A DNA stretch of 20,419 nucleotides from a virus. Lineage: Duplodnaviria; Heunggongvirae; Uroviricota; Caudoviricetes. The position numbers and the translations under genes are program-made. The notes under the pieces are model-generated. The model was not told where the DNA came from and ran no database searches. It was given only the letters and a program-made list of their open reading frames with translations. Shown here one piece after another: positions 1 to 19,536 of the stretch. The stretch's first letter is position 1; the number at the start of each line of letters is the position of its first letter. The stretch spans positions 1-20,419 of the IMG/VR virus record IMGVR_UViG_2565956729_000008. One strand, 5' to 3'.

Positions 1-891
1 ATGTCGAAACTGAAAACAGACTGGGTGGTCGTAGCCACTTCAGGCCCCACTATCGACGGTCGGGAAATTGATCCAAAGTGGCTGACGGATGCCGCCGAGG
101 TTTATAACCCGGACGAACACACTGCCATGCTCTGGCCGTTTCATGCCAGCGCCGGCTGGCGTGCTTTCACCAATAACTATGGTCTTGTTGATGCACTGAA
201 GGCAGAAAAAGCCGGTGATAAAGTGCAACTGAAAGCCCGCCTGATACCCAACCGCTTTCTGACCGAAGCCAACGAGGCCGGACAAAAACTTTTCACCTCC
301 ATAGAGGTAAAGGAAAACTACCTGGGGACAGGCAAATTCTTTGTATCCGGCATCGCCGTGACTGACACACCGGCCAGCATCAACACCACCCGCCTGCAAT
401 TTTCGCAGGGAGATTCCATTCACATGGGGAATGCGGAAGAACTGAATTTCACGCTGCAGTCTGACGACGAGCAGGCCAAACGCAGTTTCTTTTCCGGTCT
501 TTTCTCCATGGGACGCGACAAACAGGAAAACGATATGAACGAAAAGCAGTTCGGTCAGTTGATGGACGCCATCAACAAAACCGGCGAACGTCTGGGCAAA
601 CTGGAAGAAAACGTCGCGCAGTTCAGCGCGAAGGATGCCACGAAAGATACCGGTGATAACAAACCGGAAGGCAGCGCCGGCGATCAGGGGCAGGACAACG
701 CAGAACAGAACAACAAGGACGAGAAAACCTTCATGCTGACTACTGAGCAGGGCGAAAAGCTGTTCTCCACGGTGAACGCCATCGCGGAGAAAGTCACCAG
801 TATGGAAACCGCATTTGCTGAACTCAGCAAGGATGCCACGAAGCTGCCGGGTAACAATCCGGCCGGTGGCGAAACTTTTAACCTGGTGTAA
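1..891 (+). CDS. O: Capsid scaffolding protein, P2 GpO family
   Basis: 296-aa ORF starting at window base 1. Motifs DGREI, ALKAEK, KLFTSIEV and GIAVTDTPAS match the conserved N-terminal half of P2 GpO scaffolds as I recall them. Acidic, helix-prone C-terminal half. The major capsid gene follows 15 bp downstream, the canonical O-N order. Confidence 0.85.
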   Translation: MSKLKTDWVVVATSGPTIDGREIDPKWLTDAAEVYNPDEHTAMLWPFHASAGWRAFTNNYGLVDALKAEKAGDKVQLKARLIPNRFLTEANEAGQKLFTSIEVKENYLGTGKFFVSGIAVTDTPASINTTRLQFSQGDSIHMGNAEELNFTLQSDDEQAKRSFFSGLFSMGRDKQENDMNEKQFGQLMDAINKTGERLGKLEENVAQFSAKDATKDTGDNKPEGSAGDQGQDNAEQNNKDEKTFMLTTEQGEKLFSTVNAIAEKVTSMETAFAELSKDATKLPGNNPAGGETFNLV

Positions 892-905
892 CCGGAGAGA
901 ACGCA

Positions 906-1919
906 ATGAACATGACACCAGAAGCACAAAAGCTGGTTAACCAGTACCTCAGCGAACTGCAAAAAACATTCAGTGACTGCGCTGTATCAGGTGATCGCAC
1001 TTTTTCCCTGACCGAACCGCGCAGCATTGCCCTGCGTAAAGCCCTGCTGGAAAGCGCGGAGTTTCTGAATTTCACCACCTGCATGGATGTTCCGCACCCG
1101 CAGGGGCAGGTCGTCACCGTGGGCGAATCCACGCTGCGCACTGGTCGCGTGAAAAGTGGTCGTTTCGCCAAAGGTTCGGGCATCAAAGGCAACGAATTCA
1201 AACTCGTTGAAACTGATTCCTGCTGTGTGATCACCTGGGAACAACTCGCCATCTGGGCGAATGCCGGCAGCCCGCAGGAATTTTTCAATCTGATGAACTC
1301 CGCCGCCGTCACCAACTTTGCGCTGGACATGCTGCGCATTGGCTTTAACGGTAAAGAGGCTGCTGAAAACTCTGACCCGGAAAGTCACCCGAACGGCGAA
1401 GACGTCAACATCGGCTGGCATGAAATCGCCAAAAAGTGGGGAAAACAGCCCGGCAATACCTCCCGCATCCTGACGGATGCCGTTACCCTGGGTGAAGGCG
1501 GTGATTATGTCGGCCTTGACGCCATGGCGTCAGATTTGATCCGCACTTACATCCCGGCGCAGTATCACAACGACCCGCGACTTACCGTGCTGGTTGGTGC
1601 TGACCTTGTGGCTGCCGAAGAGCTGCGCCTCTACAACAAAGAAGACAAGCCTACCGAAAAAGTGGCCGCACAGCTGCTGACGAAGAACATTGCGGGCCGC
1701 AAGGCCATCATTCCACCGTTTATGCCGGGCAAGCGTATGGTGGTGACCATGCTGCCAAATCTGCAGATCCTGACGCTGAAGGGTTCCCGCCGTCGTAAAG
1801 CAGAAGATGTGGGCGATCGCAAACAGTTCGAAAACTCATACTGGCGTTACGAGGGGTACGCCCTGGGCGATCCGGATTTATATGCTGCCGTAGATGAGTC
1901 TGCGGTCACCATCGCCTGA
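906..1919 (+). CDS. N: Major capsid protein, P2 GpN family
   Basis: 337-aa ORF with a GGAG ribosome-binding site upstream. Blocks GFNGK..SD and GGDYVGLDA resemble P2 GpN. Length and position between O and M fit. Confidence 0.9.
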   Translation: MNMTPEAQKLVNQYLSELQKTFSDCAVSGDRTFSLTEPRSIALRKALLESAEFLNFTTCMDVPHPQGQVVTVGESTLRTGRVKSGRFAKGSGIKGNEFKLVETDSCCVITWEQLAIWANAGSPQEFFNLMNSAAVTNFALDMLRIGFNGKEAAENSDPESHPNGEDVNIGWHEIAKKWGKQPGNTSRILTDAVTLGEGGDYVGLDAMASDLIRTYIPAQYHNDPRLTVLVGADLVAAEELRLYNKEDKPTEKVAAQLLTKNIAGRKAIIPPFMPGKRMVVTMLPNLQILTLKGSRRRKAEDVGDRKQFENSYWRYEGYALGDPDLYAAVDESAVTIA

Positions 1920-1936: not shown

Positions 1937-2647
1937 ATGCCAACGCCAATGCAGCGACAACGTGCCCGACAGATGGATGAGCGCCGTGCAGCACTCATGA
2001 CCAGAACGGACGGGAGCGCTGTCAGTACAGAGAGCCAGCACATTAAGCTGCTGGCACTGAATAACGACATCAGACAACTGCACAACATGGAGCTGCTGTC
2101 TGACAAGCTGGAATTCAAGCGGAACACGCTGCTGCCCCGCTGGCTGCCACACGCACAGGCTTATCTGGAGGGGGAACGCGTCTATCAGAATCCCATTCTG
2201 GTGTACTGCATCATCTGGCTGTTCGATACCGGGCAGTTTGAGCTGGCGCTGCGGTGGACTGACATTGCCATTGAGCAGGGACAGAAGACGCCGGAGAACT
2301 TCAAAAGCGAGCTGCCAACGTTTGTGGCCCATTTCATTCTTGAATGGGCAGAAACCGAAGCTGAACGCGGGAACAGTATCGCGCCATATTTTCAGCAGGT
2401 GTTTGAAAAAATCCGCGACAAATGGCGTGTGAATGAACGTCTTGCTGCCCGCTACTGGCGCTTTGCAGGCGTCCAGCTGCTGCGCGGCGATGACGGCAAA
2501 CCACTGGCCAGTGCAATTAATGATACGGGGATACTGCAACAGGCTGATCAGTATCTGGAGCGGGCTGCCTGGCTGCATCCAAAAATTCAGGTGAAAACCC
2601 TGCGCCAGCGCATTGCTGCAAGACTGCGCGCGTTGCAGGGCACGTAA
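1937..2647 (+). CDS. M: Terminase small (endonuclease) subunit, P2 GpM family
   Basis: 236-aa ORF directly after N, close to P2 GpM length. Arg-rich N-terminus and an LLP.WLP-type motif resemble GpM-family proteins. GGAG ribosome-binding site precedes the ATG. Confidence 0.75.
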   Translation: MPTPMQRQRARQMDERRAALMTRTDGSAVSTESQHIKLLALNNDIRQLHNMELLSDKLEFKRNTLLPRWLPHAQAYLEGERVYQNPILVYCIIWLFDTGQFELALRWTDIAIEQGQKTPENFKSELPTFVAHFILEWAETEAERGNSIAPYFQQVFEKIRDKWRVNERLAARYWRFAGVQLLRGDDGKPLASAINDTGILQQADQYLERAAWLHPKIQVKTLRQRIAARLRALQGT

Positions 2648-2745: not shown

Positions 2746-3240
2746 ATGTTTGACGGGAAAAGCATTCACTATCAGCAGGCCATTATTCAGAACGATGGAT
2801 TCTGGCCGGATATTGATGCCGGTGATTTTGAAAAGAGCCGCAGTATCCCCGCCGTCACGTCACACGAAACGGTGCTGACGGCGCTGCTTTGCGCGGTGAC
2901 AGAGATTAACACTGAACTGGCTGCACGCCGTGAATACTGGCAGGAACAGGGCTACATCCGGGCCACTGATATTCCGGGTTACACCGTGTTGCAACCAGAG
3001 CCGCGCAACACGGATGCACAACCTCAACGGATGCAGAACCACATTACAGCACTGTACACCAAGGCTGTGTATGCACGCGCAAAGGCCGATCTTTTGCCGG
3101 AATCTGCCAGCGTGGGGCGGCGCGAGGCGCAGTCATCAACAGAAGCCAGCGAGAGCCGCCGGACGTTGCTGGCTGAAGCAGCCATGGCGGTGCGGGCGCT
3201 GCTGGGCCGACCGCGCGCCTCCATTGCACTGATTGATTAA
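2746..3240 (+). CDS. L: Head completion/stabilisation protein, P2 GpL family
   Basis: The ORF track starts it at 2683, but an in-frame ATG at 2746 follows a GGAG site and gives about 165 aa, close to P2 GpL. Motif FWPDID matches the GpL-family FFPDID region. Confidence 0.75.
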   Translation: MFDGKSIHYQQAIIQNDGFWPDIDAGDFEKSRSIPAVTSHETVLTALLCAVTEINTELAARREYWQEQGYIRATDIPGYTVLQPEPRNTDAQPQRMQNHITALYTKAVYARAKADLLPESASVGRREAQSSTEASESRRTLLAEAAMAVRALLGRPRASIALID

Positions 3241-3249: not shown

Positions 3250-3723
3250 ATGACGCAACTCGCCAGCCTGACGGCATTCATTGAAAACAATCTGCCGGCA
3301 CGCGCACGCATTCCGTTCACCAGTGACATGGATGATATCACGCTCGTTCCGTTTACGAAGTCGCTGGGGCACGGGCAGTTATGTACGCAGGTCCGAAAAT
3401 ATACGGCCTTTCTGCGATGGGACGCATGGCCCTATCGTCAGCTCAATCCGGATTTGGTGTTTTCTCTGGTTGAAGCCTGGCTGGCAGATAACGGCGGCGA
3501 CCTGCGCCAGCGCCTGGCACCGGATGCGCCAGCCGTTGACGTCGAAGCGGATGATGAAAATGAAGTGGCATGGCTGGAAATCAGTCTGCCGCTGGTTGAT
3601 CCCATCACGCTGGTTGAGGACGAAAACGGCCCCATCCCCAGAGGCGGGAAACGTTACCGGCTGGAAAAACCTGAAATCTGGGTGGCTCAGGCGCATCAGC
3701 TTCACTGTCAGGTGATGCCATGA
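3250..3723 (+). CDS. Putative tail completion protein (GpR-like)
   Basis: 157-aa acidic protein directly after L, with its stop overlapping the next start (ATGA). Size and weak pattern similarity to P2 GpR. Assignment rests mainly on position and size. Confidence 0.4.
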   Translation: MTQLASLTAFIENNLPARARIPFTSDMDDITLVPFTKSLGHGQLCTQVRKYTAFLRWDAWPYRQLNPDLVFSLVEAWLADNGGDLRQRLAPDAPAVDVEADDENEVAWLEISLPLVDPITLVEDENGPIPRGGKRYRLEKPEIWVAQAHQLHCQVMP

Positions 3724-4433
3724 CGCGCCCCGTGATTAACGAGTCACAACTCCGGCAGGTTCGTCGCGCCATCAGAGAGGCAGAACTTCCACCGGCAAAG
3801 GCCAGAAAGCTGCTGGTTCGCATTGCGAAATACGGCCTGATACCGGCTGCTCGACGCAATGTGAAAGCACAGCGAACACCGGAGGGGGCAGCTTGGGCAC
3901 CACGAAAAAGACCGGATAAAGCCAGCGGCAGGTATAAAAACAAAATGCTGCTGGGACTGCCGAAACTGCTGGCCATCAGGATTGACGGCAACGGGAAAAG
4001 TGTCCGCCTTTTCTTTAAAAAAGGGAATTACAACACCGGCTCTCATGGTGGGGCGGTCGCATGGGTACAACAGCATGGCGCAATCATCAAAGGCCGCGCC
4101 ACAAAGCGCCGGGACAACGAAGCCATGCGCACCCGCCCCGCCACACGACGGCAGGCGGAGCGGCTTCTTTCTCTGGGGTTTCGGGCACCCATCGGAGCGG
4201 TCAGCAAAAAAACCGGACGCAGGGGACGCAGAAAGCCCTCCCTGAAATGGATTATGGAAAACATGAGTATGGCGCAGGCCGGGCTGGTGATCAGCATTCT
4301 GAAAGGCGAGCAGAAAAAGCGTGTATGGGAAATCAAAATCCCCTCCCGCGCATTTCTGGGCGCCAGCGATGCTGAATTTACCCGCATTCTGGAAGCGCAG
4401 TTGCGCAGCCTGCATTACGGCGGCACGAGATAA
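3720..4433 (+). CDS. Putative virion morphogenesis / tail completion protein (GpS-like)
   Basis: 237-aa strongly basic protein, translationally coupled to the preceding gene. The segment GAVAWVQQHGAI resembles the conserved C-terminal motif of phage virion morphogenesis proteins. Position after an R-like gene matches P2 R-S order. Confidence 0.45.
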   Translation: MTRPVINESQLRQVRRAIREAELPPAKARKLLVRIAKYGLIPAARRNVKAQRTPEGAAWAPRKRPDKASGRYKNKMLLGLPKLLAIRIDGNGKSVRLFFKKGNYNTGSHGGAVAWVQQHGAIIKGRATKRRDNEAMRTRPATRRQAERLLSLGFRAPIGAVSKKTGRRGRRKPSLKWIMENMSMAQAGLVISILKGEQKKRVWEIKIPSRAFLGASDAEFTRILEAQLRSLHYGGTR

Positions 4434-4452: not shown

Positions 4453-5601
4453 ATGACCTGGCCATCTGTCACGATTGAACAGTACAACACGTTCAGTAGC
4501 TCGCCGGACGGCGTGGAAAATACGCTGCTGTTTGTGGGCAATGCACAAAACAACAAAGGTAAGGTTCTGCCGGTCAATGCCAACAGTGATCTGGATGAAT
4601 TGCTGGGAACGAACGCCAGCCCGCTGAAGAATTTCCTTCAGTCAGCACTGACCAATGCCGGACAGAATGCCTTTTTCTATGTTGCCGTTCTGCCGGAAGC
4701 AGGCAGGGGCAAAGAAGCGACGCCAGCCTGCCAGGCATGGCAGAACGCCGTACTGGCGGCTCAGGAAACTGTTTCAGTTGAAGGCGTGGTGATCACCGAG
4801 CCGGTCAGCACGAAGGATGATATCAACGCCATACAGGCGTTACGTCAGACCATCATCAATAAATATCAGCGCCGCATCTGGTTCATCCTGACCATCGCCG
4901 CCAACAACCACAGCAAAACCTGGGCGGAATACGTTGCCGAACTGACCGCACTACAGAAAGGCATTGCAGCCCCGCAGGTCATGCTGGTTCCGGAGATTTT
5001 TGGATTTGAACCGGGCGTTCTTGCTGGTCGCCTGTGTAACAGCGCCGTCACCATTGCTGACAGTCCGGCACGTGTGGCAACCGGGGCGCTGTCCGCACTG
5101 AAAACCACAGAGCGCCCGAAGGACAGCGCGGGACAGGCAATTGATCTCGCCACCCTGCAGGCGCTGGCAACCGCCCGCTACAGCGTGCCCATGTGGTATG
5201 CCGACTATGACGGCCTTTACTGGGCCGACGGCGTGACACTTGAGGTGGAAGGCGGGGACTACAACGTCATCGAACATGTCCGCATTGCTGATAAGGTGGC
5301 GCGCCGCGTACGGCTGATGGCCATCCCCAAAATTGCCGATCGCTCACTGAACAGCACACCGGGCAGCATTGCCGCACATGAAACGCTGTTTGCCCGCCCG
5401 CTGCGTACCATGGCGAAATCCACGCAGATTAACGGTGTCACCTTTCCGGGCGAAGTGAAATCGCCACAAAAAGGCGATGTGGCCATCACCTGGCAGGACG
5501 AAAAGACGGTCAGCATCAGCATTGTTGTCCGCCCTTACGCCTGCCCCAAAACCATCAAAGTGGGCATTCAGCTGGACAAATCTCTGGAGGAGAACGCATG
5601 A
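4453..5601 (+). CDS. Putative contractile tail sheath protein (not the P2 FI family)
   Basis: ATG at 4453 is preceded by AGGAG with 7-nt spacing; the track start at 4321 is an upstream in-frame extension overlapping the previous gene. 382 aa, immediately before a ~150-aa tube-like gene and upstream of chaperone and tape measure, the canonical sheath position. No recognisable similarity to P2 FI. Confidence 0.5.
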   Translation: MTWPSVTIEQYNTFSSSPDGVENTLLFVGNAQNNKGKVLPVNANSDLDELLGTNASPLKNFLQSALTNAGQNAFFYVAVLPEAGRGKEATPACQAWQNAVLAAQETVSVEGVVITEPVSTKDDINAIQALRQTIINKYQRRIWFILTIAANNHSKTWAEYVAELTALQKGIAAPQVMLVPEIFGFEPGVLAGRLCNSAVTIADSPARVATGALSALKTTERPKDSAGQAIDLATLQALATARYSVPMWYADYDGLYWADGVTLEVEGGDYNVIEHVRIADKVARRVRLMAIPKIADRSLNSTPGSIAAHETLFARPLRTMAKSTQINGVTFPGEVKSPQKGDVAITWQDEKTVSISIVVRPYACPKTIKVGIQLDKSLEENA

Positions 5602-6053
5602 CAACCCGCATTAACGGCATGGCCTTTGATGTTTATGTTGGCGGAACGGATATCCGCGTAAAAAACATTTCGCTGGATATCAGCGACGAAAGCGCCGTGG
5701 CCAAAACCCGTGGCATCCCTGACGGCAAACTGCGCGGCCCTGTCAGTGCCGAAGGTGAAATCGAAATGAGTACCCGCAGCTTTAACCAGCTCGGGGAAGT
5801 GGCGGCTCAGGCGGGATCGTGGCGTGACCTGCCGCCAATGGATTTTGTGTTTTACGCCAACACGGGCACCGAAGAAATCCGCGTTGAAGCCTTCGGTTGC
5901 GAGCTGATGCTTTCGAACCTGTTAAGCATTGACACCGAGAGCGCGGATCTGACCACGCACAAAATCAAGTACGTGGTGGCAAGCCCTGACTTTGTGCGTA
6001 TCAACGGCGTGCCCGTTCTCTCAGAGAACGACGTGCGCGGGCTGATGGGGTAA
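5598..6053 (+). CDS. Putative tail tube protein
   Basis: 151-aa ORF, start overlapping the sheath stop (ATGA), GGAGGAG upstream. Size and position typical of myovirus tube proteins. Confidence 0.5.
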   Translation: MTTRINGMAFDVYVGGTDIRVKNISLDISDESAVAKTRGIPDGKLRGPVSAEGEIEMSTRSFNQLGEVAAQAGSWRDLPPMDFVFYANTGTEEIRVEAFGCELMLSNLLSIDTESADLTTHKIKYVVASPDFVRINGVPVLSENDVRGLMG

Positions 6054-6056: not shown

Positions 6057-6353
6057 ATGCAGGAGCATGAACGCACCATCATCACCCTGGGCATTCTGGG
6101 CGGAATCGCTGCCGCAAGTCGGGTGCTGGCTGGCGCAGAACCGATTACGTTGCGGTTGTTTGTGGGCCGAACCCTGCTGGGGAGCGCGCTGGGTGTTTCT
6201 GCCGCCGCCCTGCTGGTTCGCTACCCGAACCTTGACCCACTGGCCATTGCCGGCGCAGGTACCGCAATGGGCGTTGCCGGTTACCAGATTGTGGAAATCT
6301 TCCTGCGCCACATGCGCCGGAAGCTGGACGAAAAAGAGAACAAAGAGGAGTAA
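6057..6353 (+). CDS. Y: Holin, P2 GpY-like
   Basis: 98-aa protein with hydrophobic transmembrane segments and a highly charged C-terminal tail (RRKLDEKENKEE). The stretch VLAGAEPITLRLFVGRTLLG and GYQIVEI resemble the P2 Y holin as I recall it. Lies directly upstream of the endolysin. Confidence 0.75.
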   Translation: MQEHERTIITLGILGGIAAASRVLAGAEPITLRLFVGRTLLGSALGVSAAALLVRYPNLDPLAIAGAGTAMGVAGYQIVEIFLRHMRRKLDEKENKEE

Positions 6354-6358: not shown

Positions 6359-6466
6359 ATGCAGTCCCGCAGGGATCAGAAAGCCGCTGCCATTGTCTGG
6401 AAAATTATCCGGGCGTTGTGGCGCTGGTTGCGTAAACCTCAACAACCCCGTAAGGAGCAAAAATGA
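6359..6466 (+). CDS. Small basic amphipathic peptide (35 aa), possible lysis accessory
   Basis: ATG at 6359 through TGA at 6464-6466, translating to MQSRRDQKAAAIVWKIIRALWRWLRKPQQPRKEQK. Its stop overlaps the endolysin start (ATGA). Below the ORF-track size cut-off. Coding status unproven. Confidence 0.25.
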   Translation: MQSRRDQKAAAIVWKIIRALWRWLRKPQQPRKEQK

Positions 6467-6804
6467 AACTCTCCGATAAGCAACAACAATTTACCGTCAT
6501 GATCGGAAAACTCATCCAGTTTGCCCATCAGCGCGGTTATGGCCTGACGTTCGGTGAGGCGTACCGCACGCCAGAGCAGGCAAAACTCAACGCACAAAAG
6601 GGATCAGGCATCACCAACAGTCTGCACTGCCAGCGACTGGCGGTGGATTTTAATCTGTTTATTAACGGTGAATACCAGACCCGCACAGAGGCTTACCGCG
6701 AACTGGGCGAGTACTGGGAATCCCTCGGCGGCACATGGGGCGGTCGTTTTAAAAACCGCCCGGATGGCAATCATTTCAGCCTTGAGCACGACGGTGTGCG
6801 CTGA
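6463..6804 (+). CDS. Endolysin, peptidase M15 / LAS-type zinc metallopeptidase
   Basis: 113 aa with an H-x6-D motif (HCQRLAVD) and a downstream His pair (NHFSLEHD), matching the zinc-binding triad of M15-family cell-wall peptidases. AAGGAG ribosome-binding site upstream. Sits next to the holin. Confidence 0.85.
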   Translation: MKLSDKQQQFTVMIGKLIQFAHQRGYGLTFGEAYRTPEQAKLNAQKGSGITNSLHCQRLAVDFNLFINGEYQTRTEAYRELGEYWESLGGTWGGRFKNRPDGNHFSLEHDGVR

Positions 6805-6810: not shown

Positions 6811-6842
6811 GCTTAATAAGCCTTCCTGCAGGCTTATTAAGC
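6811..6842 (+). terminator. Perfect 12-bp stem / 8-nt loop hairpin after the lysis genes (weak terminator or attenuator)
   Basis: GCTTAATAAGCC-TTCCTGCA-GGCTTATTAAGC, followed by the T-rich stretch CCTCTTATTCTT. It begins 7 bp after the endolysin stop. The T-tract is imperfect, so termination is probably partial. Confidence 0.35.
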
Positions 6843-6868: not shown

Positions 6869-7162
6869 ATGATGATGAACGATAAAAACACCCAAACCAC
6901 CGCAGAGAACGCCATCACTTTACAGGTCGGCGAGCATGAACTGACGTTTATCCCGACGGTGAAAGACTACAACGACCTGCAGAACGACTTCATGCCGGAC
7001 AATAAAATTGCACCGCTGAAAAACTACCTGCGCCGCATCGTGATTAAAGAGCACCGCGATCTGCTGAACCAGTTGCTGGAAAAACCGGGAATGCCGGCCA
7101 GTCTGGCAACTGCCGTGAATAACGAGTTTGTGCCGGAAGTGGAAATCACCGTAAAAAAATAA
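6869..7162 (+). CDS. Tail assembly chaperone, short form (E/G-like)
   Basis: 97-aa acidic protein immediately upstream of the tape measure. Three consecutive ATGs at 6869-6877 with AGGA at 6864-6867, so the true start is probably 6872 or 6875. Ends GTA AAA AAA TAA. Confidence 0.6.
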   Translation: MMMNDKNTQTTAENAITLQVGEHELTFIPTVKDYNDLQNDFMPDNKIAPLKNYLRRIVIKEHRDLLNQLLEKPGMPASLATAVNNEFVPEVEITVKK

Positions 7163-7350
7163 AAAGCCATCTGAGGGCCATTGATCGCAATGACCTTACC
7201 AGGATGCTGATCCTGCGCCGCCACTGGCTGCCCGGTGAAGATGATTCACCACAGTCACTGGCTGCTGCCGTCTGGCTGGATAACCACTACTGGGAAAATA
7301 TGGGTATCGCCGTCAATAACGGCATTATCCGCGCCTTTAAGGGAACGTAA
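6869..7350 (+). CDS. Tail assembly chaperone, long form via programmed -1 frameshift (E+E'-like)
   Basis: Slippery heptamer A AAA AAA at 7153-7159 sits directly before the zero-frame stop. The -1 frame from 7159 is open for 62 codons (IKSHLRAIDRND...IIRAFKGT) with no ATG, and its TAA at 7348-7350 overlaps the tape-measure ATG at 7350. I checked the frame codon by codon. Confidence 0.55.
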
Positions 7351-10963: not shown

Positions 10964-11595
10964 ATATTCCGGAGATGCCCGAATTCCCTCTCCCAACCTG
11001 GATGAACAAGGGAGAGCCATTAACACTGGCACATTCTTCACATCGTTACTGGGAGAAGGTCTACAGCTGGCTGACATGGCCACTACAGCAAATTGATGTT
11101 GATACCTGCGCAGAGCCTCTGCTTAACCTGCTGGCCTATCAGCGCAACATCACCCGCTTCAGTGGGGAGCCAGTTTCATTATTTCGCTTAAGGGTAAAAC
11201 ACGCGTTTATCAACGCTCAGGACTCGGGCGAACGTGCCGGCTTCGAACGCATCTTTAAGCGTCTTGGCGTGGGAGAGGTAAAAACCCTGGAACGACAGTT
11301 GCAGCATGACTGGGACGTTATTTTACTGCGCATCAATGACACCCAGTTAAGCGAAAACAATGCCCTGATGATGCAGCTCGTGCGCCAGTATGGCCGTACC
11401 TGCAGGCGCTATTTCTTTCAGGTAATCAATACAACCACTGCCCGGCTGACAGCCGGCACATTTGATGGCCATTACAGGTATCACACAGCAGAAGCAACGG
11501 TGAGAAAGGACACCATCTGGTTAACCGCTTCGCTACAGGCAGGACATTACGGCCTGTCCGTGGAGCATTACACATTACAGGCAGACGAAGCATGA
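10960..11595 (+). CDS. Putative baseplate/tail protein I-like
   Basis: 211 aa from the ATG at 10960, overlapping the J stop (ATGA); the track start at 10810 is an upstream extension. Loose pattern similarity to P2 GpI and the canonical position between J and the fiber gene. Confidence 0.45.
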   Translation: MNIPEMPEFPLPTWMNKGEPLTLAHSSHRYWEKVYSWLTWPLQQIDVDTCAEPLLNLLAYQRNITRFSGEPVSLFRLRVKHAFINAQDSGERAGFERIFKRLGVGEVKTLERQLQHDWDVILLRINDTQLSENNALMMQLVRQYGRTCRRYFFQVINTTTARLTAGTFDGHYRYHTAEATVRKDTIWLTASLQAGHYGLSVEHYTLQADEA

Positions 11596-13460
11596 GCACG
11601 ATTATTACTGAACAGTACGAACACTGGTGTGCGAATCAGCTCATCAGTGGAAAACCTGCGCGCCCGGATACATTTGTTTTTGCATATATTCCGGGACAGG
11701 ATGAATCCGCAGAGATCCCCCGCGATGAGATACTCCCTGATGAATCCATGATTCAGTATCGTGCGCCGGTCACCCAGTACGGCCTCCTGTCGCCGAACGC
11801 GACCGCGTTTTCCATCATTCTGGACACGACAGTCGGCGACTTCGAATACAACTGGATCGGTCTGCTGAACGAAGAAAGCGGCGTGCTCTGCATGATTGCA
11901 CACACACCTCGTCAGCAAAAAATTAAAACAGCGAACGGCGTACAGGGAAACAACCTGATCCGCACATTTTCCATGGAGTTTGACGGCGCAGCCGCAGCAA
12001 TGCATATCGATGTCAGTGCTGATGTCTGGCAGATTGATTTCACTGCACGCCTTGCAGGAATGGATGAGGCCCGCCGGCTGCTGGCGTTTGATCACTACGG
12101 TGAAGCCGCTTTTCTGGGGGATGGTTTTCAGGTCAGCTATCAGGATGGTACCGCTACTGTTGCCGCCGGCGTGGGTTATGTGGGAGGTCTGCGCGTCAGT
12201 CTGCGCGAACCTTACAGCCTGCCGGCTGCGGTCGGGGATACCATTTGGATTGATGCAAGCTGGCAGGGATTTGTTACCGGCGAATGGAATACCGTTTTTA
12301 CGTTCTGCGCCCGCCAGGAACATGCGTCCTATACAGACGGTAACGGCTTCCGACACTTTGTCGCGCCACTTGCGAAACTGACATCAGAAGGCTTACAGGA
12401 TTTACGTCCACAGACGCCCGATGAAGAACAAAGCAATGCACTGGCAGAGCACGAAAAATCCCGCCGTCATCCGGACGCAACACTGAAGGAGAAAGGCTTT
12501 GCGCAGTACAGCAACTCCACCGACAGCGACGCAGAAGACCGCGCCGCCACATCAAAGGCAGTAAAAGCCGCAATGGATAAGGCAAAAGGCGCTGTTGAGC
12601 GTGACGGCGACACCATGACCGGGGAACTGAAAATCCGTGGTGTTAATGCGCTGAGGATTTTCAACGAAGCCTTTGGTCTGATTTTTCGTCGTTCGGAAGA
12701 GTGCCTGCACCTTATCCCTACCAGTGAAGGTCAGGGCGAGAATGGCGATATTGGTCCACTTCGACCGTTCACTATTAATCTGCGGACGGGTGAAATATCC
12801 ATGTCGCATAAAGTGTCTGTTGGCGGCGGTTCTCAGGTCAATGGTGCGCTGGGTATCGGCGTTCAGAACGCGCTGGGCGGAAACTCAATTGCTTTCGGGG
12901 ATAACGATACAGGTATAAAACAAAACGGCGACGGCATTCTGGATGTTTATGCGAATGGACAGCATGTATTTCGTTTCCAGAATGGTGTGGCAATAGCGTT
13001 AAAAAATATTCAGGCCGGAAATGCTAAAAAATTCACGTTATCCAGCGACAACAACTCCACGAAAAACGCAACGTTTAATTTATGGGGTAATTCATCCCGA
13101 CCTGTAGTTGCAGAGCTTGGTGATGATTCCGGCTGGCATTTTTACAGCCAGAGAAATACCGATGGCAGTATCACATTCGCTGTAAACGGACAGATGACCC
13201 CATCAAACTATGGAAATTTCGATGCCCGTTATCAGCAGCGAAATGGCGGCGTGCAGGATGTGCGTTATGGTTCCGAAATGTATTACAACCCGGGAGGTAA
13301 CCAGGTATCCTGGACATTTCGCTCACCTTCAGGCCACGGGTTATCCGGTATTAATGTGCAGGAAACCGGAAGTAATTCGGCAGATAACATCGGCGGCGTG
13401 TATTACCGTCCGCTTCAGAAACTGATTAATGGCACCTGGTATAACGTGGCGAGTGTTTAA
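11592..13460 (+). CDS. Tail fiber protein with a P2 GpH-like C-terminal receptor-binding region
   Basis: 622 aa. AEHEKSRRHPDATLKEKGF and the C-terminal ~200 aa (NALGGNSIAFGDNDTGIKQNGDGILDVYANGQHVFRFQNGVAIALKNIQAG ... LINGTWYNVASV) closely match the P2 GpH C-terminus as I recall it. The N-terminal ~150 aa is of a different type from the P2 H N-terminus. Confidence 0.9.
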   Translation: MSTIITEQYEHWCANQLISGKPARPDTFVFAYIPGQDESAEIPRDEILPDESMIQYRAPVTQYGLLSPNATAFSIILDTTVGDFEYNWIGLLNEESGVLCMIAHTPRQQKIKTANGVQGNNLIRTFSMEFDGAAAAMHIDVSADVWQIDFTARLAGMDEARRLLAFDHYGEAAFLGDGFQVSYQDGTATVAAGVGYVGGLRVSLREPYSLPAAVGDTIWIDASWQGFVTGEWNTVFTFCARQEHASYTDGNGFRHFVAPLAKLTSEGLQDLRPQTPDEEQSNALAEHEKSRRHPDATLKEKGFAQYSNSTDSDAEDRAATSKAVKAAMDKAKGAVERDGDTMTGELKIRGVNALRIFNEAFGLIFRRSEECLHLIPTSEGQGENGDIGPLRPFTINLRTGEISMSHKVSVGGGSQVNGALGIGVQNALGGNSIAFGDNDTGIKQNGDGILDVYANGQHVFRFQNGVAIALKNIQAGNAKKFTLSSDNNSTKNATFNLWGNSSRPVVAELGDDSGWHFYSQRNTDGSITFAVNGQMTPSNYGNFDARYQQRNGGVQDVRYGSEMYYNPGGNQVSWTFRSPSGHGLSGINVQETGSNSADNIGGVYYRPLQKLINGTWYNVASV

Positions 13461-13462: not shown

Positions 13463-14020
13463 ATGTTACATTTAAAAAATATTACTGCGGGTAATCCGAA
13501 AACCGCGGAACAATATCAGCTGACAAAACAATATGGTGTCACCTGGCTTTTTTCGGAAGACGGCAAAAACTGGTATGAAGAACAGAAGAACTTTGCCAGT
13601 GACACAATAAAAATGGTTTACTCCGGGGACGGGCGCGTGGTGTGGGTCGGTAAGGATGTGACAGGCATTGAACCCCGTAACGCCAGTGTTATTGAAGTTC
13701 CGGATATTACCGCTAATCGCCGTATTACCGCGCCTGGTTACTGGTTTTACCGCGATGGCAATTTTATCTTCGACTACAAACTTAAAGCGGAAGATGAGCG
13801 TGATGCACTGTTAAAACAGGCCAGTATCATGACCAGCGAATGGGAAAAAGACCTGCTGCTGGGATTAATCAGCGACGAAGACAGGGAAAAACTGAAAGCC
13901 TGCCGTATTTATACAAAAACGTTACGGGAGATGACATTCAGCCAGGTTACAGATAAAGCATCGTATGCCACAATTGTATGGCCGGAATTACCGCAGGATA
14001 TTAACGAGAATAAAAAATAA
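13463..14020 (+). CDS. Tail fiber assembly chaperone (GpG/Tfa family)
   Basis: 185 aa immediately downstream of the fiber gene. The C-terminal motif VWPELP matches the conserved WP..P ending of Tfa chaperones. Confidence 0.8.
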   Translation: MLHLKNITAGNPKTAEQYQLTKQYGVTWLFSEDGKNWYEEQKNFASDTIKMVYSGDGRVVWVGKDVTGIEPRNASVIEVPDITANRRITAPGYWFYRDGNFIFDYKLKAEDERDALLKQASIMTSEWEKDLLLGLISDEDREKLKACRIYTKTLREMTFSQVTDKASYATIVWPELPQDINENKK

Positions 14021-16548
14021 TGAGCGCGCTGTTGACGAAAGCATTTGAGAAATGGGTTGCTGAATGTGCCGCCAGTAATTTACCGGCGCGACCTGACTCC
14101 ATTGTTTTTGCACTGATGGAAAGGGAACCATCCAGAAATGATGAAGTTGTCCCTCCTGAAAAAATCACACACACGGTAAATAATCTGCGCTATGGAAAAC
14201 TGGATCCAAACAGCATTGTCTGTAGTGCCGTTGTTGCTGATAACGAGACATTCACTTACGACTGGATTTGCCTGGTCCATCAACCCAGCAACACACTCTG
14301 CGGCGTAATTAAAACCCCGGTTCGTCACAAACTGACCGGCGAAACACTTATCCGCAATTTTGCTGTTATTTATAGCGGACTGGCTCAGGCTGCACACATT
14401 ACTGTTCCTCCTGAAAGCTGGCAAACAGACATCTCGCAGGAGCTGAAAACAATTCAGGGTTTTATCAGCGATCACATAGCAGTATCAACCCGTTATGCGG
14501 TTACCGAAGCTAATAAGCAGTTTTTGTCCATGCAGATAACCCACGGGCGTTATTCAGGGATCTGGCGCTATCTTAATTCAACCGGGGGTATTAACTGGTA
14601 TTTTTTGTTTCTTGCAATGTATGAAAGCGAAGGTAAAGCCTTTTCTCTCAGGGACAGACTCGTTATTTGTGAAAAAGCCTTTCGTCTCGGTATAACAGCG
14701 CCATTCATGACGAATTTCCGCTATGAAGCCGGACAGCATGTGATGATTAACAGCACGCTATTTTTTGTAAATATCGCCGGCATTACTGGAGAAACCACAC
14801 CTGATATCAGTAGCATCTTACAAGGTGAGTTTATTTATACAGGTTCCGCTGTTCTTGAATGTCTCGGGAAGACCAGTAAAGAGATCCCGTCATCATGGTC
14901 ATGGTTCTTTACCGATGTGGCCGCTGATTTATATTCACCGGTTGCCCCTGATTCTACAGACAGTTACCCATCCCTCTGGTTTGCCTGTATTGCTGAAATT
15001 GCAGACGCTTCGTGGTTACAGACCCCTTCAGGGCTCGGCAATCATTCCAGATGGGAAATTATCAGACTGGTAGCGGAAAATAATATTTTACGTCAGCTAA
15101 ATACTGACGCAAATCTGGTAAACGTCTTTCAGGGAAACGTTGCTCCCGGTAATACTCATTACGCGCAATGTTTTTGTCAGGATAATGCCGAAGTGTATGC
15201 CGGTTTACGGGCCCTGGTCTTTCTGGCCGGACTGGTTAATGACTCTGATGCTGCCTCGCAATATTCCAACGCAATGAAAACAATTAAAACAGGGTTGCTG
15301 GCATTATTTGTTCCGGGCCAGAACAGATTCAAGACGTATTACAATGAAGCTGATTACCCCGATACCCCGGGCGATGCGCGTTTTGTGCAAAAAGACCGAT
15401 TCTCTGTGGCTCCGTGGCGCTTTGGTGTGCTGAATACGCCTGCTGAACAGGCACAATATGGACTATCCGTTCTGGATGCCATCCAGAAAGATTATCCCGA
15501 TTTATTTACATCGGATTACGCAGGCATTGATACTTTCGCCATGAGCGACTTTTTTGCATTCGTGGCAAAAGTTACAGCCTCACAGACCGCCGCAACAACA
15601 GCTCTCCGTCGTCTGCAGATCAGAAAAACTGCCGCCGTAACAATTTCAGATATTGCATCAGCAATGTCAGTTTCAGCATGGGGATCAGTCCCCTGCATGA
15701 GTACACGCGACTTTATACGAATTAATGGTCGCTCCGTTGTTGGAGATGAAGATATTGTCTTTCCGGAAAGAGAAATCCGGCACATTACCCCCGTCAATAA
15801 CGCCCAGGTGGTTGTGGATAACCTCAACAATGACACCGTATTGTTTATTGATAATGACTCTGCACTTTCATATCTCCAGTTCAAAATAGCGCCGGGGCTG
15901 GTTGATGGTTGCCGCCTGTCAATCACACCGAAAAGGGACGTGACGAGAACATCATTTCTTACGCAGGATGCGCAGGTTTCAGATGCTCCGGAAGCGTTAT
16001 TTGCAGGGAAAAACGTTACATTTACGTACAATGCAACAACGCAAACATGGCACAGAAACTTTGTACCTGCAGTTTCTTCTGCTGCTACAAATTTATTGAA
16101 AAAACAATCAGAATCTCTGTTTGTTGATGGCGCTCACCCGATCATCCCCAAAATGCTTGTAAGCACCCTGAACTCCAGTCTGGATTCATTTAAAAGCCTG
16201 CCCGATGGTTCGCGTGTTTATACCCTGAAGCTGGATGTATCAAACCCCGTCGGGCAATCCTCAGTTGGCGGCATCGGAATCGCTGTTTCAGCGCAGATTG
16301 AGCCGCGTTATCTCTATCAGAACCAGAACCGACAGTACATTCCAGCGCAGTATTTTGTCAGCTCTGTCTCTGCAAATGCGCGAACAATCACTATCGGAAT
16401 ACAGGTGGTGATGCCTGATAAACCTTACTATGCACTGGATATGTCAACACTGGAAGAAATTGCCGGCGCAGATAATGGGTTGCTCCCCTGTGTTGTGGTT
16501 ATAAAAACACTTGCAGGGACAACGTTGCGTCAGAACGGAATGGGATAA
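14020..16548 (+). CDS. Second tail fiber / receptor-binding protein candidate
   Basis: 842 aa, start overlapping the Tfa stop (TAATGA). Residues 1-140 align with the N-terminus of the fiber at 11592 (shared E.W.A, PARPD..VFA, Y.WI.L, S..LC, TP, LIR.F, AA.HI.V, WQ.D). The remainder is unrelated: a helix-rich central region and a beta-rich Ser/Thr/Asn-rich C-terminus. Confidence 0.55.
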   Translation: MSALLTKAFEKWVAECAASNLPARPDSIVFALMEREPSRNDEVVPPEKITHTVNNLRYGKLDPNSIVCSAVVADNETFTYDWICLVHQPSNTLCGVIKTPVRHKLTGETLIRNFAVIYSGLAQAAHITVPPESWQTDISQELKTIQGFISDHIAVSTRYAVTEANKQFLSMQITHGRYSGIWRYLNSTGGINWYFLFLAMYESEGKAFSLRDRLVICEKAFRLGITAPFMTNFRYEAGQHVMINSTLFFVNIAGITGETTPDISSILQGEFIYTGSAVLECLGKTSKEIPSSWSWFFTDVAADLYSPVAPDSTDSYPSLWFACIAEIADASWLQTPSGLGNHSRWEIIRLVAENNILRQLNTDANLVNVFQGNVAPGNTHYAQCFCQDNAEVYAGLRALVFLAGLVNDSDAASQYSNAMKTIKTGLLALFVPGQNRFKTYYNEADYPDTPGDARFVQKDRFSVAPWRFGVLNTPAEQAQYGLSVLDAIQKDYPDLFTSDYAGIDTFAMSDFFAFVAKVTASQTAATTALRRLQIRKTAAVTISDIASAMSVSAWGSVPCMSTRDFIRINGRSVVGDEDIVFPEREIRHITPVNNAQVVVDNLNNDTVLFIDNDSALSYLQFKIAPGLVDGCRLSITPKRDVTRTSFLTQDAQVSDAPEALFAGKNVTFTYNATTQTWHRNFVPAVSSAATNLLKKQSESLFVDGAHPIIPKMLVSTLNSSLDSFKSLPDGSRVYTLKLDVSNPVGQSSVGGIGIAVSAQIEPRYLYQNQNRQYIPAQYFVSSVSANARTITIGIQVVMPDKPYYALDMSTLEEIAGADNGLLPCVVVIKTLAGTTLRQNGMG

Positions 16549-16572: not shown

Positions 16573-17295
16573 ATGAAATATTCTGTATGGGAGCACGCCA
16601 TTCTGCGCCCGGCCCCCATGGCCATCACCTGTTCAATGGTTTGCCTCCATCCATGGTCAGAAAATACGGGAAACATTACACCATCGGGGCGTTATCTCAG
16701 CCCGGATAATGCTGTATCCGCGCTTTTACCTTATCTGACAGAAAGCACTGAAAAAGACGTTGTGGCGCTGTTATTTTGCGCCCCGTCTGCAGGCGAGTTT
16801 TTATCACTGGCCAGACAGTTTTCAGGTGCACTTCCATTGCCGGAAGTGGGAAGAATGTCCCGCATGATCTCCAGCCAGCTTTCGCTGGCCGTGAGTAAAA
16901 TGCAGCTCCCTGCAAAACCTGTAACCACACTTCCTGCAGAGGTCACGCTGTCCACACAGACCATCCGCAGCATGACGCGGGCAGCGACTATTGCGCAGGC
17001 TGCGATCCCGACCGCTGTATCTCCGGAAACATTATCCTCGTCTCTGAATCAGTTCAGAATCGCGAGAGATAAGGCACTACAGGAAATCACCGACCAGCAG
17101 GCCGCAATTCAGAAAAACACGTGTCCGGTGTGGCGTTTTTTTTATACGGGCACACTAAATCAGGTTGCAGCACTGATAAAAAAAAATATTCCACATCCGG
17201 AATGGGTTTTTACAGCTGTGATGCTGTTTGTCGGTAATGATCTTTCATCACTAAGAGAATCACTACATGACCCAGATGATCGTTCTTGCACTTGA
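16573..17295 (+). CDS. Hypothetical protein (orphan, no recognisable family)
   Basis: About 240 aa from the ATG at 16573, preceded by AGGAAAA; the track uses a TTG at 16552. Tightly packed between the second fiber gene and the U-like gene with a 3' overlap. Low-complexity Ser/Thr/Ala-rich middle region. Confidence 0.4.
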   Translation: MKYSVWEHAILRPAPMAITCSMVCLHPWSENTGNITPSGRYLSPDNAVSALLPYLTESTEKDVVALLFCAPSAGEFLSLARQFSGALPLPEVGRMSRMISSQLSLAVSKMQLPAKPVTTLPAEVTLSTQTIRSMTRAATIAQAAIPTAVSPETLSSSLNQFRIARDKALQEITDQQAAIQKNTCPVWRFFYTGTLNQVAALIKKNIPHPEWVFTAVMLFVGNDLSSLRESLHDPDDRSCT

Positions 17296-17842
17296 CGGGG
17301 AAGCCATTCTGTTACGCAACATCATCGTCAGCGCCACCATGCAACTACCGGATAAAGATATGTCCGGACAGTCAACCAGCACCACCAGTGCCCAGCAGGG
17401 AAGCAAGGCTAAAGAGCTGCGTGTATCAGGCGTCATTGATTTTAATGATGAAGCTGTTCTGACCCGTATATTTCAGCTTGCAGAAGCCACAGAAAGCAAC
17501 GGGGCTAAAAAAACATACCGCATCGCCAACGCTACTGCTAAGGCGATTAATATGCGACAGGGTGTTTTTTCGGGCGGCATTGATGCCACGGAACAACAGG
17601 GCAAGATGCACTGGCAGGTCACCTTTACTCTCAGGGAAAAATTAAGCGTGCCGGAAAAAGCATCGGCACGCAGTGGCTCACAGAAAACAATCGCAAAGCA
17701 GCAAACACAGAACGGCAGTGAGCAGGCACCGGATAAAGGAATGAATACCCAGGAGACTTTCTGGAAAAATATCAATGATGGTATTGGCTCCGGGCTGGAC
17801 TGGATTGGCATCGGGAGCGTGAAAGAGGAAGGGAAAACATGA
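17267..17842 (+). CDS. Putative tail protein (GpU-like)
   Basis: 191 aa; alternative start at 17276 (MIVLALDGE). Loose pattern resemblance to P2 GpU. Directly precedes the hub/spike-like gene, as U precedes D in P2. Confidence 0.4.
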   Translation: MTQMIVLALDGEAILLRNIIVSATMQLPDKDMSGQSTSTTSAQQGSKAKELRVSGVIDFNDEAVLTRIFQLAEATESNGAKKTYRIANATAKAINMRQGVFSGGIDATEQQGKMHWQVTFTLREKLSVPEKASARSGSQKTIAKQQTQNGSEQAPDKGMNTQETFWKNINDGIGSGLDWIGIGSVKEEGKT

Positions 17843-19536
17843 AGTTAATCCAACGTTGCATGATTAATGGCGAGCTGGCGGAAATTGCCGATATCAGCCT
17901 TGTCCTTACCCTGAATGCTGCCGGTCGCGGCTTCATTTCTGTTAATAATCTGTCACCGGAAAAAAGCCTTGCCGGCGCAATGATACAAATTGATCTCGGC
18001 CGTAATGGTGAGGCATGGCGCTATTTCTCCGGCTACATTGAGCGCGATCAACCCGCCGAAAATGGCTCACGCCGCCTTTTTATCCGTGAAGCAGCTGCCG
18101 TGCTGGATTTTGATTTCCCCTGCTCCATGCAACATCCAACGTTACGGGATGTACTCGATAATCTGGGTAAACAAAGCGGCATCGTTTTCATCACGCCAGA
18201 TGCAGATTACGTCAGCACACCGACACCTTACATCACCCACAGCGGCAGCGGAGCACAACTGCTCAGCCAGCTGGGGCGAGCATTCAGTATCAGCGATTAC
18301 GTCTGGCATCCAATGCCGGACGGTTCCGTATTTGTGGGAAGTGCACCGGATTCACGGTTTGCCAGTATTACCATGCCGGATATTCCGCAGCAGTACACAC
18401 TCGGACAAAGCGGCGGAAACAGCATCGACATCATGTTTATGGAAACTGTGCGACCGGGCGTGAACCTTCCGGCCGGGCGCATTACCCGTGTAGCCCTCAA
18501 CAACGAGAAAATGACCCTGACATGGGAACGCCTTACCGCCACGGGTAGCCCTGTTTCCAAATCACCATTACGCAGACAGATGGAAACACAGTTCCCGGAA
18601 CTGGCCAGCGGCACTCTGCATACCCGACTGGCGCGCGTCATTGCCCCAACGGAATCCGTCACCCTGGGCGATATTGCCGACAGCTTCCGCCCACGCTACG
18701 CCGTCGATGTGCAACTGCTTGATGAGAACGGCAACGATAAAAGCGATACGCCTGTTTATCCGGCAGTACCACTCCCCGTCCCGATGGCTGGTAGCGAAGC
18801 GGGATGTTTTGCCTACCCGCCGGCAGGCACCATCGTGGAAATATCCAACATTGAAGGGCGACCGGATAAACCTGTCATCAGGCAAATCTTACCCGCGGGC
18901 CATAACCTGCCTGATGTAAAGCCCGGCGAACAGCTGCAGCAACAGCGCGCAGAGGTGTTTCAGCGCGTCACGACTGACGGAAGCTGGCACAGAGAAACTG
19001 ACCAGCAAATCAGGGAGCATTCAGCCAGGCGAACCATTAACAGCGATCAGGAAGAACGCACAACAACAACCAGAACAACAACAGTCCAAGCAAACGACAT
19101 AACCAGTGTTCTTGGTACCAGTAAGCTGATGACAGGCCAGACAGAACACCTTACTACCGGCAATTATGCGATCGCAGCCGGTGAGCATATCCAGATGGTA
19201 GCGCAGGATTTGCTGACTCAACTCAAAGGGGCGATATCCACCATTGAGCATGACCTCACCGAAAACGTGGGAGGCCGCAGAACATGCAGGGCGGACGGAG
19301 GTCTGGAGTTTACCGCCCCGACAGTATTTATTGGTCGCGGTGGCTCGCGGGAAAAATCCGGGCTTAACCTGCTGACATTGCTGATCGATATTCTGGACCT
19401 GGTTCAGTTGCTGGCCACACATACAGCAAACCACACCCATAGCAACACTGGCACGCCAATGAACAGCGGCGAACTTGCCGCAGATGCCCTGCAGGCAACG
19501 AGCCTGCGCGAAAAATACGGCGACATTATCGCCTGA
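17839..19536 (+). CDS. Putative baseplate hub / central spike protein (GpD/GpV-like)
   Basis: 565 aa, start overlapping the upstream stop (ATGA). Last gene before a strong terminator. C-terminal THTANHTHSNTGTP resembles the His-x-His apex motif of P2 GpV-type spikes. Its length suggests a fused hub-spike architecture. This is an inference. Confidence 0.45.
   Translation: MKLIQRCMINGELAEIADISLVLTLNAAGRGFISVNNLSPEKSLAGAMIQIDLGRNGEAWRYFSGYIERDQPAENGSRRLFIREAAAVLDFDFPCSMQHPTLRDVLDNLGKQSGIVFITPDADYVSTPTPYITHSGSGAQLLSQLGRAFSISDYVWHPMPDGSVFVGSAPDSRFASITMPDIPQQYTLGQSGGNSIDIMFMETVRPGVNLPAGRITRVALNNEKMTLTWERLTATGSPVSKSPLRRQMETQFPELASGTLHTRLARVIAPTESVTLGDIADSFRPRYAVDVQLLDENGNDKSDTPVYPAVPLPVPMAGSEAGCFAYPPAGTIVEISNIEGRPDKPVIRQILPAGHNLPDVKPGEQLQQQRAEVFQRVTTDGSWHRETDQQIREHSARRTINSDQEERTTTTRTTTVQANDITSVLGTSKLMTGQTEHLTTGNYAIAAGEHIQMVAQDLLTQLKGAISTIEHDLTENVGGRRTCRADGGLEFTAPTVFIGRGGSREKSGLNLLTLLIDILDLVQLLATHTANHTHSNTGTPMNSGELAADALQATSLREKYGDIIA

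Follow-up and report, generated by a model that had tools for sequence, protein, structure and literature searches.

An Escherichia coli prophage late region with a P2-type head and an HP1-type tail, a pairing very probably inherited from the ancestor of the HP1 subgroup

Does a P2-type head on a tail unlike that of P2 mark an exchange made in the genome that carries it, or a combination inherited from an ancestor? This question is raised by a 20,419-nucleotide stretch of viral DNA (positions 1–20419 of IMG/VR record IMGVR_UViG_2565956729_000008; the whole stretch is called the window), in which a block of late genes occupies positions 1–19536. A preliminary description, made from the sequence alone, had read this block as a mosaic formed by modular exchange between a P2-type head and a rearranged tail module from a different contractile-tail lineage. 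Our analysis indicates that the window is the complete late region (virion structure and lysis) of a temperate prophage of E. coli that belongs to the HP1 subgroup of Peduoviridae, and that its P2-type head and non-P2 tail were inherited from the common ancestor of the whole subgroup rather than combined in this genome. We place the probability of this account at roughly 0.9.

Late genes and membership of the HP1 subgroup

The 21 late genes called as open reading frames (ORFs) fill the block, all lie on the plus strand, are tightly packed and have intact frames, and Pfam and PHROGs name nearly all of their proteins (Table 1). The GPO scaffold, capsid, small terminase and GPL genes belong to P2 families and stand in the P2 order O-N-M-L, as had been claimed, and both ORF calls and Pfam agree that the sheath, tube, lysis, chaperone and tape measure genes lie ahead of the baseplate and fibre genes. 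The sheath is of the DUF2586 type and the tube of the HP1 orf24 type, in place of FI and FII. When every window protein was compared by tblastn with eight reference genomes (E ≤ 1e-3), the matches ran monotonically along five HP1-group genomes. Together with the annotated maps, they gave the gene order of Haemophilus phage HP1 orf17–orf35, gene for gene, and likewise that of Cronobacter phage ESSI-2, Aeromonas phage phiO18P, Pseudomonas phage phi3 and Vibrio phage K139. All non-cassette genes were collinear with these five phages, at 23–68% identity. The tail satisfies the definition of the subgroup given in PMC10612066 (Table 2), with 38–57% identity to HP1 and no match in P2 or 186. Identities to the HP1 counterparts were 47% for the sheath (orf23), 50% for the tube (orf24), 39% for the tail chaperone (orf26), 40% for the tape measure (orf27), 57% for the DUF2590 protein, 48% for the gpI-like protein (orf30), 46% for the ORF34-family protein and 38% for the orf35-like protein; the orf33-like protein, at the matching position, has 28% identity to HP1 orf33.

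The features of the P2 subgroup were not found. Neither an FI sheath (Phage_sheath_1) nor an FII tube (Phage_tube) was matched by Pfam, tblastn or hhalign. The P2 gene order (L-X-lysis-R-S, V-W-J-I-H-G and FI-FII-E-T-U-D) was likewise missing, and the matches to P2 and 186 were non-monotonic.

The DNA to the left of the window is represented by a scaffold (L017) that is 100% identical to window positions 1–10891. Its upstream part has oppositely oriented large terminase and portal genes together with genes for an Ogr/Delta zinc-finger protein, an Rrf2 regulator, P2 A-type replication and a ParM/StbA-type partition pair; the divergent portal and large terminase, the Ogr/Delta activator and the replication gene again agree with the HP1 subgroup. 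A roughly 91% identical E. coli prophage adds an integrase, a repressor and Cox. The prophage is apparently an intact, ordinary member of the HP1 subgroup. As a separate observation, the ParM/StbA-type actin-like partition gene and its plasmid-stability partner (L017 4649–5927, and L002 8649–9927) are unusual cargo for an integrating P2-like phage.

Age and origin of the head–tail pairing

The head of this prophage is closer to those of the HP1 group than to that of P2. By tblastn, the gpO-like protein has 38% identity with HP1 orf17 vs 34% with P2 O, and the gpN-like capsid protein is 59% identical to that of ESSI-2, 30% to that of HP1 and 28% to that of P2. Similarly, M is 46% identical to its ESSI-2 counterpart vs 26% for P2, and L 41% vs 21%. 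The GC content is uniform over the head–tail boundary (0.52–0.58) and is 0.45–0.49 between ∼12.5 and 17.5 kb. All 80 IMG/VR loci with a related sheath are collinear with the window, and a P2-family capsid gene is present in 66 of the 70 that have at least 5 kb of upstream DNA, the four capsid-less exceptions being truncated or rearranged elements. The same is seen at far greater distances. A distant DUF2586 representative (P0343), with 28% identity to the window sheath, and four relatives that are 28–40% identical to P0343 lie on five contigs that all have a P2-type head; each has portal and/or terminase genes and then O-N-M-L-R-S-sheath-tube-chaperone-tape measure-DUF2590-J.

Because the head is closer to the HP1 group, the GC content is constant at the boundary and the pairing is stable over great distances, the pairing is not particular to the window. 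The idea of a mosaic peculiar to this DNA was thus not upheld, since the arrangement is the canonical architecture of the HP1 subgroup, common to the five reference phages and the 80 loci. This architecture has reportedly been known since the HP1 genome was sequenced by Esposito and colleagues in 1996 (cited in PMC7312051), and as a known family trait it adds little to the question asked. Every intact HP1-type tail that we sampled, down to about 28% sheath identity, is found on a P2-type head, which bears on a question left open by PMC10612066.

We then considered how far the tail is from that of P2. In agreement with the preliminary description, the sheath and tube were unlike P2 FI and FII: tblastn found no match to either in P2 or 186, shallow profiles against FI and FII gave hhalign probabilities below 2%, and a 28-sequence sheath alignment reached 0.4% against P2 FI. 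Nor did the tube resemble Mu M (tblastn, shallow hhalign). In the shallow HP1-group profiles compared with P2, 186 and Mu, the sheath, tube, orf28, orf34 and orf35 all remained below 3%, a weak negative because 6-sequence alignments were set against references of 1–2 sequences. Deeper HHpred searches link HP1-type and P2-type tail proteins at about 13% identity (PMC10612066). The preliminary description would have been refuted had its sheath and tube proved to be ordinary FI/FII homologues and its gene order universal among known P2-like phages; neither is the case.

Structural comparison of an AlphaFold2 model of the DUF2586 sheath (mean pLDDT, the predicted local distance difference test score, 76) with Foldseek returned 38 PDB matches at E ≤ 1e-3. 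All were contractile sheaths, from phages, tailocins and contractile injection systems, at 8–16% identity and with 3hxl at the top (E 3e-10). In BFVD, the nearest model was that of the HP1-group phage F108, followed by varied myovirus sheaths. Judged by this model, the DUF2586 protein is a true contractile sheath, roughly equidistant from many lineages. A DUF2586 profile search of 1.84 billion representative proteins gave 288 clusters (defined at 50% identity) at E ≤ 1e-3, and the family is closed, without a gradient toward FI-type sheaths. PDB sequence searches with the sheath, tube, fibre 2 and orf35-like proteins returned nothing significant. The HP1-type tail is therefore widespread and yet appears structurally uncharacterised, with no solved sheath or tube relative by sequence and only these distant fold matches.

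A published analysis (PMC10612066, Viruses 2023) split the Peduoviridae into an HP1 group and a P2 group by tail-protein similarity, and found the tail module to be far more divergent than the head between the two. It proposed that one branch acquired a much older tail module, and its sheath timetree places the HP1/P2 split as deep as the myovirus radiation. The best surviving alternative is that no exchange took place, with HP1-type and P2-type tails descending vertically from one P2-like ancestor and diverging and reshuffling faster than the head. We consider this possible, although improbable. It draws on the faint profile similarity of R, S, J and I to their P2 counterparts (hhalign probabilities of 42%, 97%, 9% and 21%) and on the Pfam assignments P2_Phage_GpR, Phage_tail_S and Tail_P2_I. 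However, the J-like protein matches Mu gp47 far better (95%) than P2 J, the DUF2586 clusters show no gradient to FI, and the depth of the sheath timetree argues against it. In addition, the median identity to HP1 is about 47% for the tail and about 37% for the head, and yet P2 detects the head only (21–34%). A tail that is better conserved than the head within the HP1 group, but undetectable in P2, favours ancient replacement over uniform fast divergence. These relative rates, calculated from sequence, favour an ancient replacement of the tail module, short of proof. The proposed modular exchange is thus plausible as an ancient, family-wide and already published event, and did not hold as a recent or window-specific junction.

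The two remaining alternatives fared worse. It is very unlikely that the locus is a prophage remnant that has become defective, or a tailocin-like cluster that has been domesticated. Headless HP1-type tail clusters do exist and the second fibre is pseudogenised in some relatives, but here the densely packed reading frames are all intact, the genes for head and packaging are there, and one genome has three or more near-identical copies at different sites, which suggests recent activity. A recent mosaic, in which the head of P2 proper recombined in E. coli with the tail of an unrelated myovirus, would explain why P2 and 186 match head genes and not tail genes, but is scarcely credible given the closer head relatives in ESSI-2, the uniform GC content and the occurrence of the same pairing and order in five reference genera, 80 IMG/VR loci and five very distant relatives.

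Other points weigh against our account of an inherited pairing in a functional HP1-type prophage. Myovirus particles and inducibility are predictions from the genes, and the tube, orf33, orf34 and orf35 proteins are assigned their roles by family name, gene position and weak resemblance. Within 6353–6869, no gene was recognisable as a spanin (Rz/Rz1-like). Finally, the proposed single late operon is deduced from the lack of gaps and of enriched promoter or Ogr-box motifs.

One headless HP1-type tail cluster is found in L043 (positions 1–21143; IMG/VR UViG_3300048856_000141), immediately downstream of a P2-type FI-FII-E-T-U-D block and an ogr-like gene. Besides an Ogr-like gene of its own, it comprises R, sheath, tube, chaperone, tape measure, baseplate, fibre and orf33–35, and is without O, N, M, L, S and lysis genes. 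The arrangement may represent two elements side by side, or else the cluster is a candidate for an HP1-type tailocin or a remnant.

Expression, gene functions and recent exchange

Table 1. Features of the window, with the evidence for each (L numbers denote sequences compared with the window)
Feature	Position	Strand	Evidence
gpO-like capsid scaffold/protease	1..891	+	Pfam Phage_GPO, E 8e-40
gpN-like major capsid protein, P2 family	906..1919	+	Pfam Phage_cap_P2, E 1e-82
gpM-like small terminase subunit	1937..2647	+	Pfam Phage_term_smal, E 1e-35
gpL-like head completion/head-tail adaptor	2746..3240	+	Pfam Phage_GPL, E 7e-28
gpR-like tail terminator	3250..3723	+	Pfam P2_Phage_GpR, E 8e-16; PHROG 65 tail terminator
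gpS-like tail completion/neck protein	3720..4433	+	Pfam Phage_tail_S, E 7e-9
HP1-type contractile tail sheath	4453..5601	+	Pfam DUF2586, E 3e-129; PHROG 907 tail sheath
HP1-type tail tube, orf24 family	5598..6053	+	Pfam Phage_HP1_Orf24, E 2e-50; directly after sheath
Holin, P2 gpY family	6057..6353	+	Pfam Phage_holin_3_2, E 6e-28
35-residue ORF between holin and endolysin	6359..6466	+	Called as gene in L010-L013, L016-L017
M15 peptidase endolysin	6463..6804	+	Pfam Peptidase_M15_4, E 1e-11
13-bp perfect hairpin between lysis genes and chaperone (possible partial terminator)	6811..6842	+	Terminator scan
Tail assembly chaperone, short form	6869..7162	+	Pfam Phage_TAC_10, E 3e-25
Putative -1 frameshift site and 63-codon extension for long chaperone	7153..7350	+	Sequence, three-frame translation
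Tail tape measure protein	7350..9446	+	Pfam PhageMin_Tail, E 2e-29
DUF2590 baseplate protein (HP1 orf28; gpW position)	9436..9786	+	Pfam DUF2590, E 1e-35
Baseplate J/gp47-like wedge protein	9779..10963	+	Pfam Baseplate_J, E 1e-31
gpI-like baseplate protein	10960..11595	+	Pfam Tail_P2_I, E 1e-4; PHROG 1228
Tail fibre 1, HP1-type N-terminal collar and P2 gpH-like tip	11592..13460	+	Pfam Phage_tail_fib and Phage_fiber_2
Tail fibre assembly chaperone	13463..14020	+	Pfam Caudo_TAP, E 3e-22
Tail fibre 2 (842 residues), HP1-type collar and distal body found in other prophage fibres	14020..16548	+	
HP1 orf33-like protein (240 residues)	16573..17295	+	PHROG 1677; position
HP1 ORF34-family baseplate protein	17267..17842	+	Pfam HP1_ORF34, E 2e-53
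HP1 orf35-like baseplate hub/spike, VgrG-like (565 residues)	17839..19536	+	PHROG 2258 baseplate protein, E 7e-234
GC-rich hairpin and T run, probable late-operon terminator	19576..19601	+	Read from sequence
hok/gef-family toxin gene (moron, outside 1-19536)	20279..20419	+	PF01848 HOK_GEF, weak

The only gaps in the late block lie between M and L (99 nt), between the holin and endolysin genes (with a 35-codon ORF inside) and between the endolysin and chaperone genes (65 nt, with a hairpin). As none is large enough for internal late promoters, the 21 genes would most likely be transcribed as one long rightward operon. Consistent with this, promoter-like (sigma-70-like) sites in the window were below chance expectation and Ogr-type TGT-N12-ACA boxes showed no enrichment (5 found vs 5.4 expected). 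Late transcription would start just outside the window, in the divergent P/O promoter region on its upstream side, under the control of an Ogr/Delta-type zinc-finger activator whose gene also lies upstream. In that intergenic region, about 80–110 nt upstream of window position 1, L017 carries a near-perfect palindrome (9893–9920; TTTTCGGATATATGCGTATATCCGAAAA), a candidate late-activator site unlike the TGT-N12-ACA box of P2. Three assembly scaffolds end 126 nt upstream of O, near this palindrome.

The capsid would be built from the O scaffold/protease, N capsid protein, M small terminase and L head completion protein (with the start codon of the gpL-like gene taken from the annotation of an E. 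coli homologue), and the neck from R and S. The tail would be made of the DUF2586 sheath, the orf24 tube, the tape measure and the short and -1 frameshifted long forms of the chaperone. The baseplate would comprise the DUF2590, J-like, I-like, orf33, orf34 and VgrG-like hub/spike proteins, and the tail would bear two kinds of fibre. For the long chaperone, a slippery heptamer (A AAA AAA, 7153–7159) is found at the gene end (GTA AAA AAA TAA), and the -1 frame is open from the heptamer to 7350, where a TAATG overlaps the tape measure start. The extension corresponds to an ORF annotated separately as DUF6890 in relatives. The heptamer and overlapping -1 ORF are predicted to form the conserved tail-chaperone frameshift.

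The preliminary description had placed U and the hub/spike at the far end of the block. Their position was borne out, and the labels are less secure: the name U comes from the Pfam family 'HP1 ORF34 baseplate complex protein' and from HHpred in PMC10612066, with no similarity to P2 U detected in a shallow profile test, and hub/spike from weak VgrG, gp5 and Phage_base_V matches at residues 311–445 of the orf35-like protein. The orf33-like protein has no Pfam family. In distant HP1-type clusters, an additional large gene lies between the DUF2590 and J-like genes, unlike in the window; in L103 (14974–19050) it encodes 1358 residues and in L104 (10195–11967) 590 residues, with a Phage_RBD_prop domain.

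The holin and M15 endolysin, which would lyse the cell, are encoded between the tube and tail chaperone genes, a shared position at which the content of the lysis cassette varies among HP1-group phages. The holin is 43% identical to P2 Y and has no match in HP1, and the endolysin is 77% identical to that of ESSI-2 and absent from HP1 and P2. No spanin was recognised in this cassette, whereas those of HP1, ESSI-2, phiO18P and phi3 include one. The 35-residue ORF gave no match in NCBIfam, the sole library searched for it.

Recent mosaicism is confined to the usual hot spots, which are the lysis genes, hok and, among the fibre genes, fibre 2 and the regions encoding the fibre tips. The last 207 residues of fibre 1 (416–622) are 62% identical to the P2 gpH C-terminus, and positions 12562–13911 share 91–93% nucleotide identity with fibre genes carried by unrelated phages, among them phiP27, Rac-SA53 and an Actinobacillus phage. 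The fibre chaperone is of the Mu U'/P2 G type, with 48% identity to Mu U' and 42% to P2 G. Fibre 2 has its HP1-type collar domain, which would attach it to the baseplate, in common with fibre 1 (36% identity over residues 1–154), and over residues 132–842 it has 79% identity to an E. coli protein whose N-terminus is of another type (PF08400). This body of roughly 700 residues was absent from all deposited phages and was found in one of 5,426 complete E. coli genomes (78% nucleotide identity), as part of a 992-residue second fibre within a Mu-type tail cluster. A lambdoid-prophage origin of the body was dropped, given that single case. A second fibre gene with a collar domain also occurs in the related E. 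coli prophages, where its distal part is a different one (520–690 residues); in the relative examined this gene was pseudogenised.

The fibre 2 model had a pLDDT of about 90 over residues 160–550. Its central helical toroid weakly matched (alpha/alpha)6 glycoside hydrolases of families GH116, GH76, GH52 and GH78 (E 1e-3 to 1e-2), and Pfam gave a sub-threshold match to MGH1-like_GH (E 0.003). On the basis of this model, we tentatively suggest, while regarding it as doubtful, that fibre 2 might belong to an undescribed class of non-beta-helix, polysaccharide-degrading receptor-binding proteins that moves as a cassette between unrelated myovirus tails. Equally tentatively, the several copies of the prophage might reflect unusually relaxed integration. 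The 90%-identity protein cluster that holds fibre 2 also lists tyrosine integrases of ~400 residues, apparently an artefact of the clustering rather than biology. Only the second fibre and the presence of several prophage copies are possibly worth further work here.

Scaffolds of E. coli assembly GCA_000488115.1 match the window at 100% identity, and the proteins are listed under E. coli. The late region is present on four scaffolds of this assembly (L010, L011, L013 and L017; KI530661–KI530664), and the exact fibre 2 protein has four accessions. Host flanks after hok differ on three scaffolds (xapR/xapB, rpmE/priA and ytfP/tamB sides), and therefore at least three prophage copies occupy different sites of one E. 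coli genome; a count of four is uncertain, as scaffold 664 overlaps others. A fourth insertion site, near copA/ushA, was seen in another sample. L010 and L011 share a further 279 nt after the hok stop, the last of which read AAAGCGCCCGCAGGCGCTTTTTT, and L013 and L012 diverge earlier. The DNA beyond hok differs between copies and forms a variable cargo zone before the right attachment site. Positions 20121–20419, containing hok and upstream mok-like sequence, have about 92% nucleotide identity to P2-type coliphages (Xuanwuvirus, P88) in their hok/mok regions. No Rfam family was found in the window, whose end cuts off the hok mRNA.

Comparison with known phages

Mu resembles the window in that its sheath, tube, chaperone and tape measure genes likewise precede the baseplate and fibre genes. 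However, only the fibre tip and fibre chaperone matched Mu by tblastn, and the J-like protein by hhalign; the Mu sheath, tube, hub and spike have no similarity to the window proteins and its head genes are unrelated. A Mu-like tail module was therefore rejected, as the sheath and tube are not of the Mu L/M type and the hub/spike gene lies after the fibres, whereas in Mu the hub and spike precede W/J/I. An R-type tailocin was also rejected, in view of O, N, M and L in the window and the portal and terminase upstream.

The protein-level comparison with P2 (Peduovirus) and 186 (Eganvirus), which belong to the same family, gave tblastn matches for O, N, M, L, S, the holin and the fibre tip, and with P2 also the fibre chaperone. 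O, N, M, L and S are homologous and keep their order, at 21–39% identity, and the holin is 38–43% identical. P2-like Q/P genes, Ogr and an A-type replication gene are also present upstream in the genome of the window. None of the sheath, tube, chaperone, tape measure, DUF2590, J-like, I-like, orf33, orf34 and orf35 proteins matched P2 by tblastn, and shallow profiles likewise linked neither the chaperone nor the tape measure to P2. In P2, the tail genes are split into V-W-J-I-H-G and FI-FII-E-T-U-D operons and the lysis genes lie between L/X and R, whereas the window has sheath-tube-lysis-chaperone-tape measure, then W/J/I and fibres, then orf33–35. In addition, hub and spike appear fused in the VgrG-like protein but are separate in P2 (D and V).

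HP1 (Hpunavirus) is far closer, with 18 of the 21 window proteins matched at the corresponding position (23–57% identity) and the families DUF2586, Phage_HP1_Orf24, DUF2590 and HP1_ORF34 in common. Its order is O, N, M, L, R, S, sheath, tube, [lysis], chaperone, tape measure, orf28, orf29, orf30, fibre, fibre chaperone, orf33, orf34 and orf35. The window differs by its additional second fibre gene, its P2/Mu-type fibre tip and chaperone, and its E. coli host. The lysis genes also differ, since HP1 has a pinholin, a signal-arrest-release (SAR) muramidase and an Rz-like protein (PMC7312051) rather than a P2 Y-type holin and M15 peptidase.

The closest deposited phage genomes are ESSI-2 and the 'Escherichia phage ESSI2_ev' prophages (Seongnamvirus). 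All 21 window proteins match ESSI-2 collinearly (26–77% identity), including the M15 endolysin, although ESSI-2 differs in having only one fibre gene and in encoding an Rz-like spanin. By ICTV convention, members of a genus share about 70% or more nucleotide identity over the genome. Seongnamvirus members reach about 68–71% over 17–25% of window positions 1–8000, which for the late region compared is below genus level, and membership of Seongnamvirus was rejected. None of these phages matched by megablast across the late region. This suggests a separate genus-level lineage on sequence grounds, and one represented, in the collection searched, by neither a phage record within genus range nor a sequenced isolate. 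Yet prophages with ∼91% nucleotide identity to it, at no less than 80% coverage, are present in 41 of the 5,426 complete E. coli genomes.

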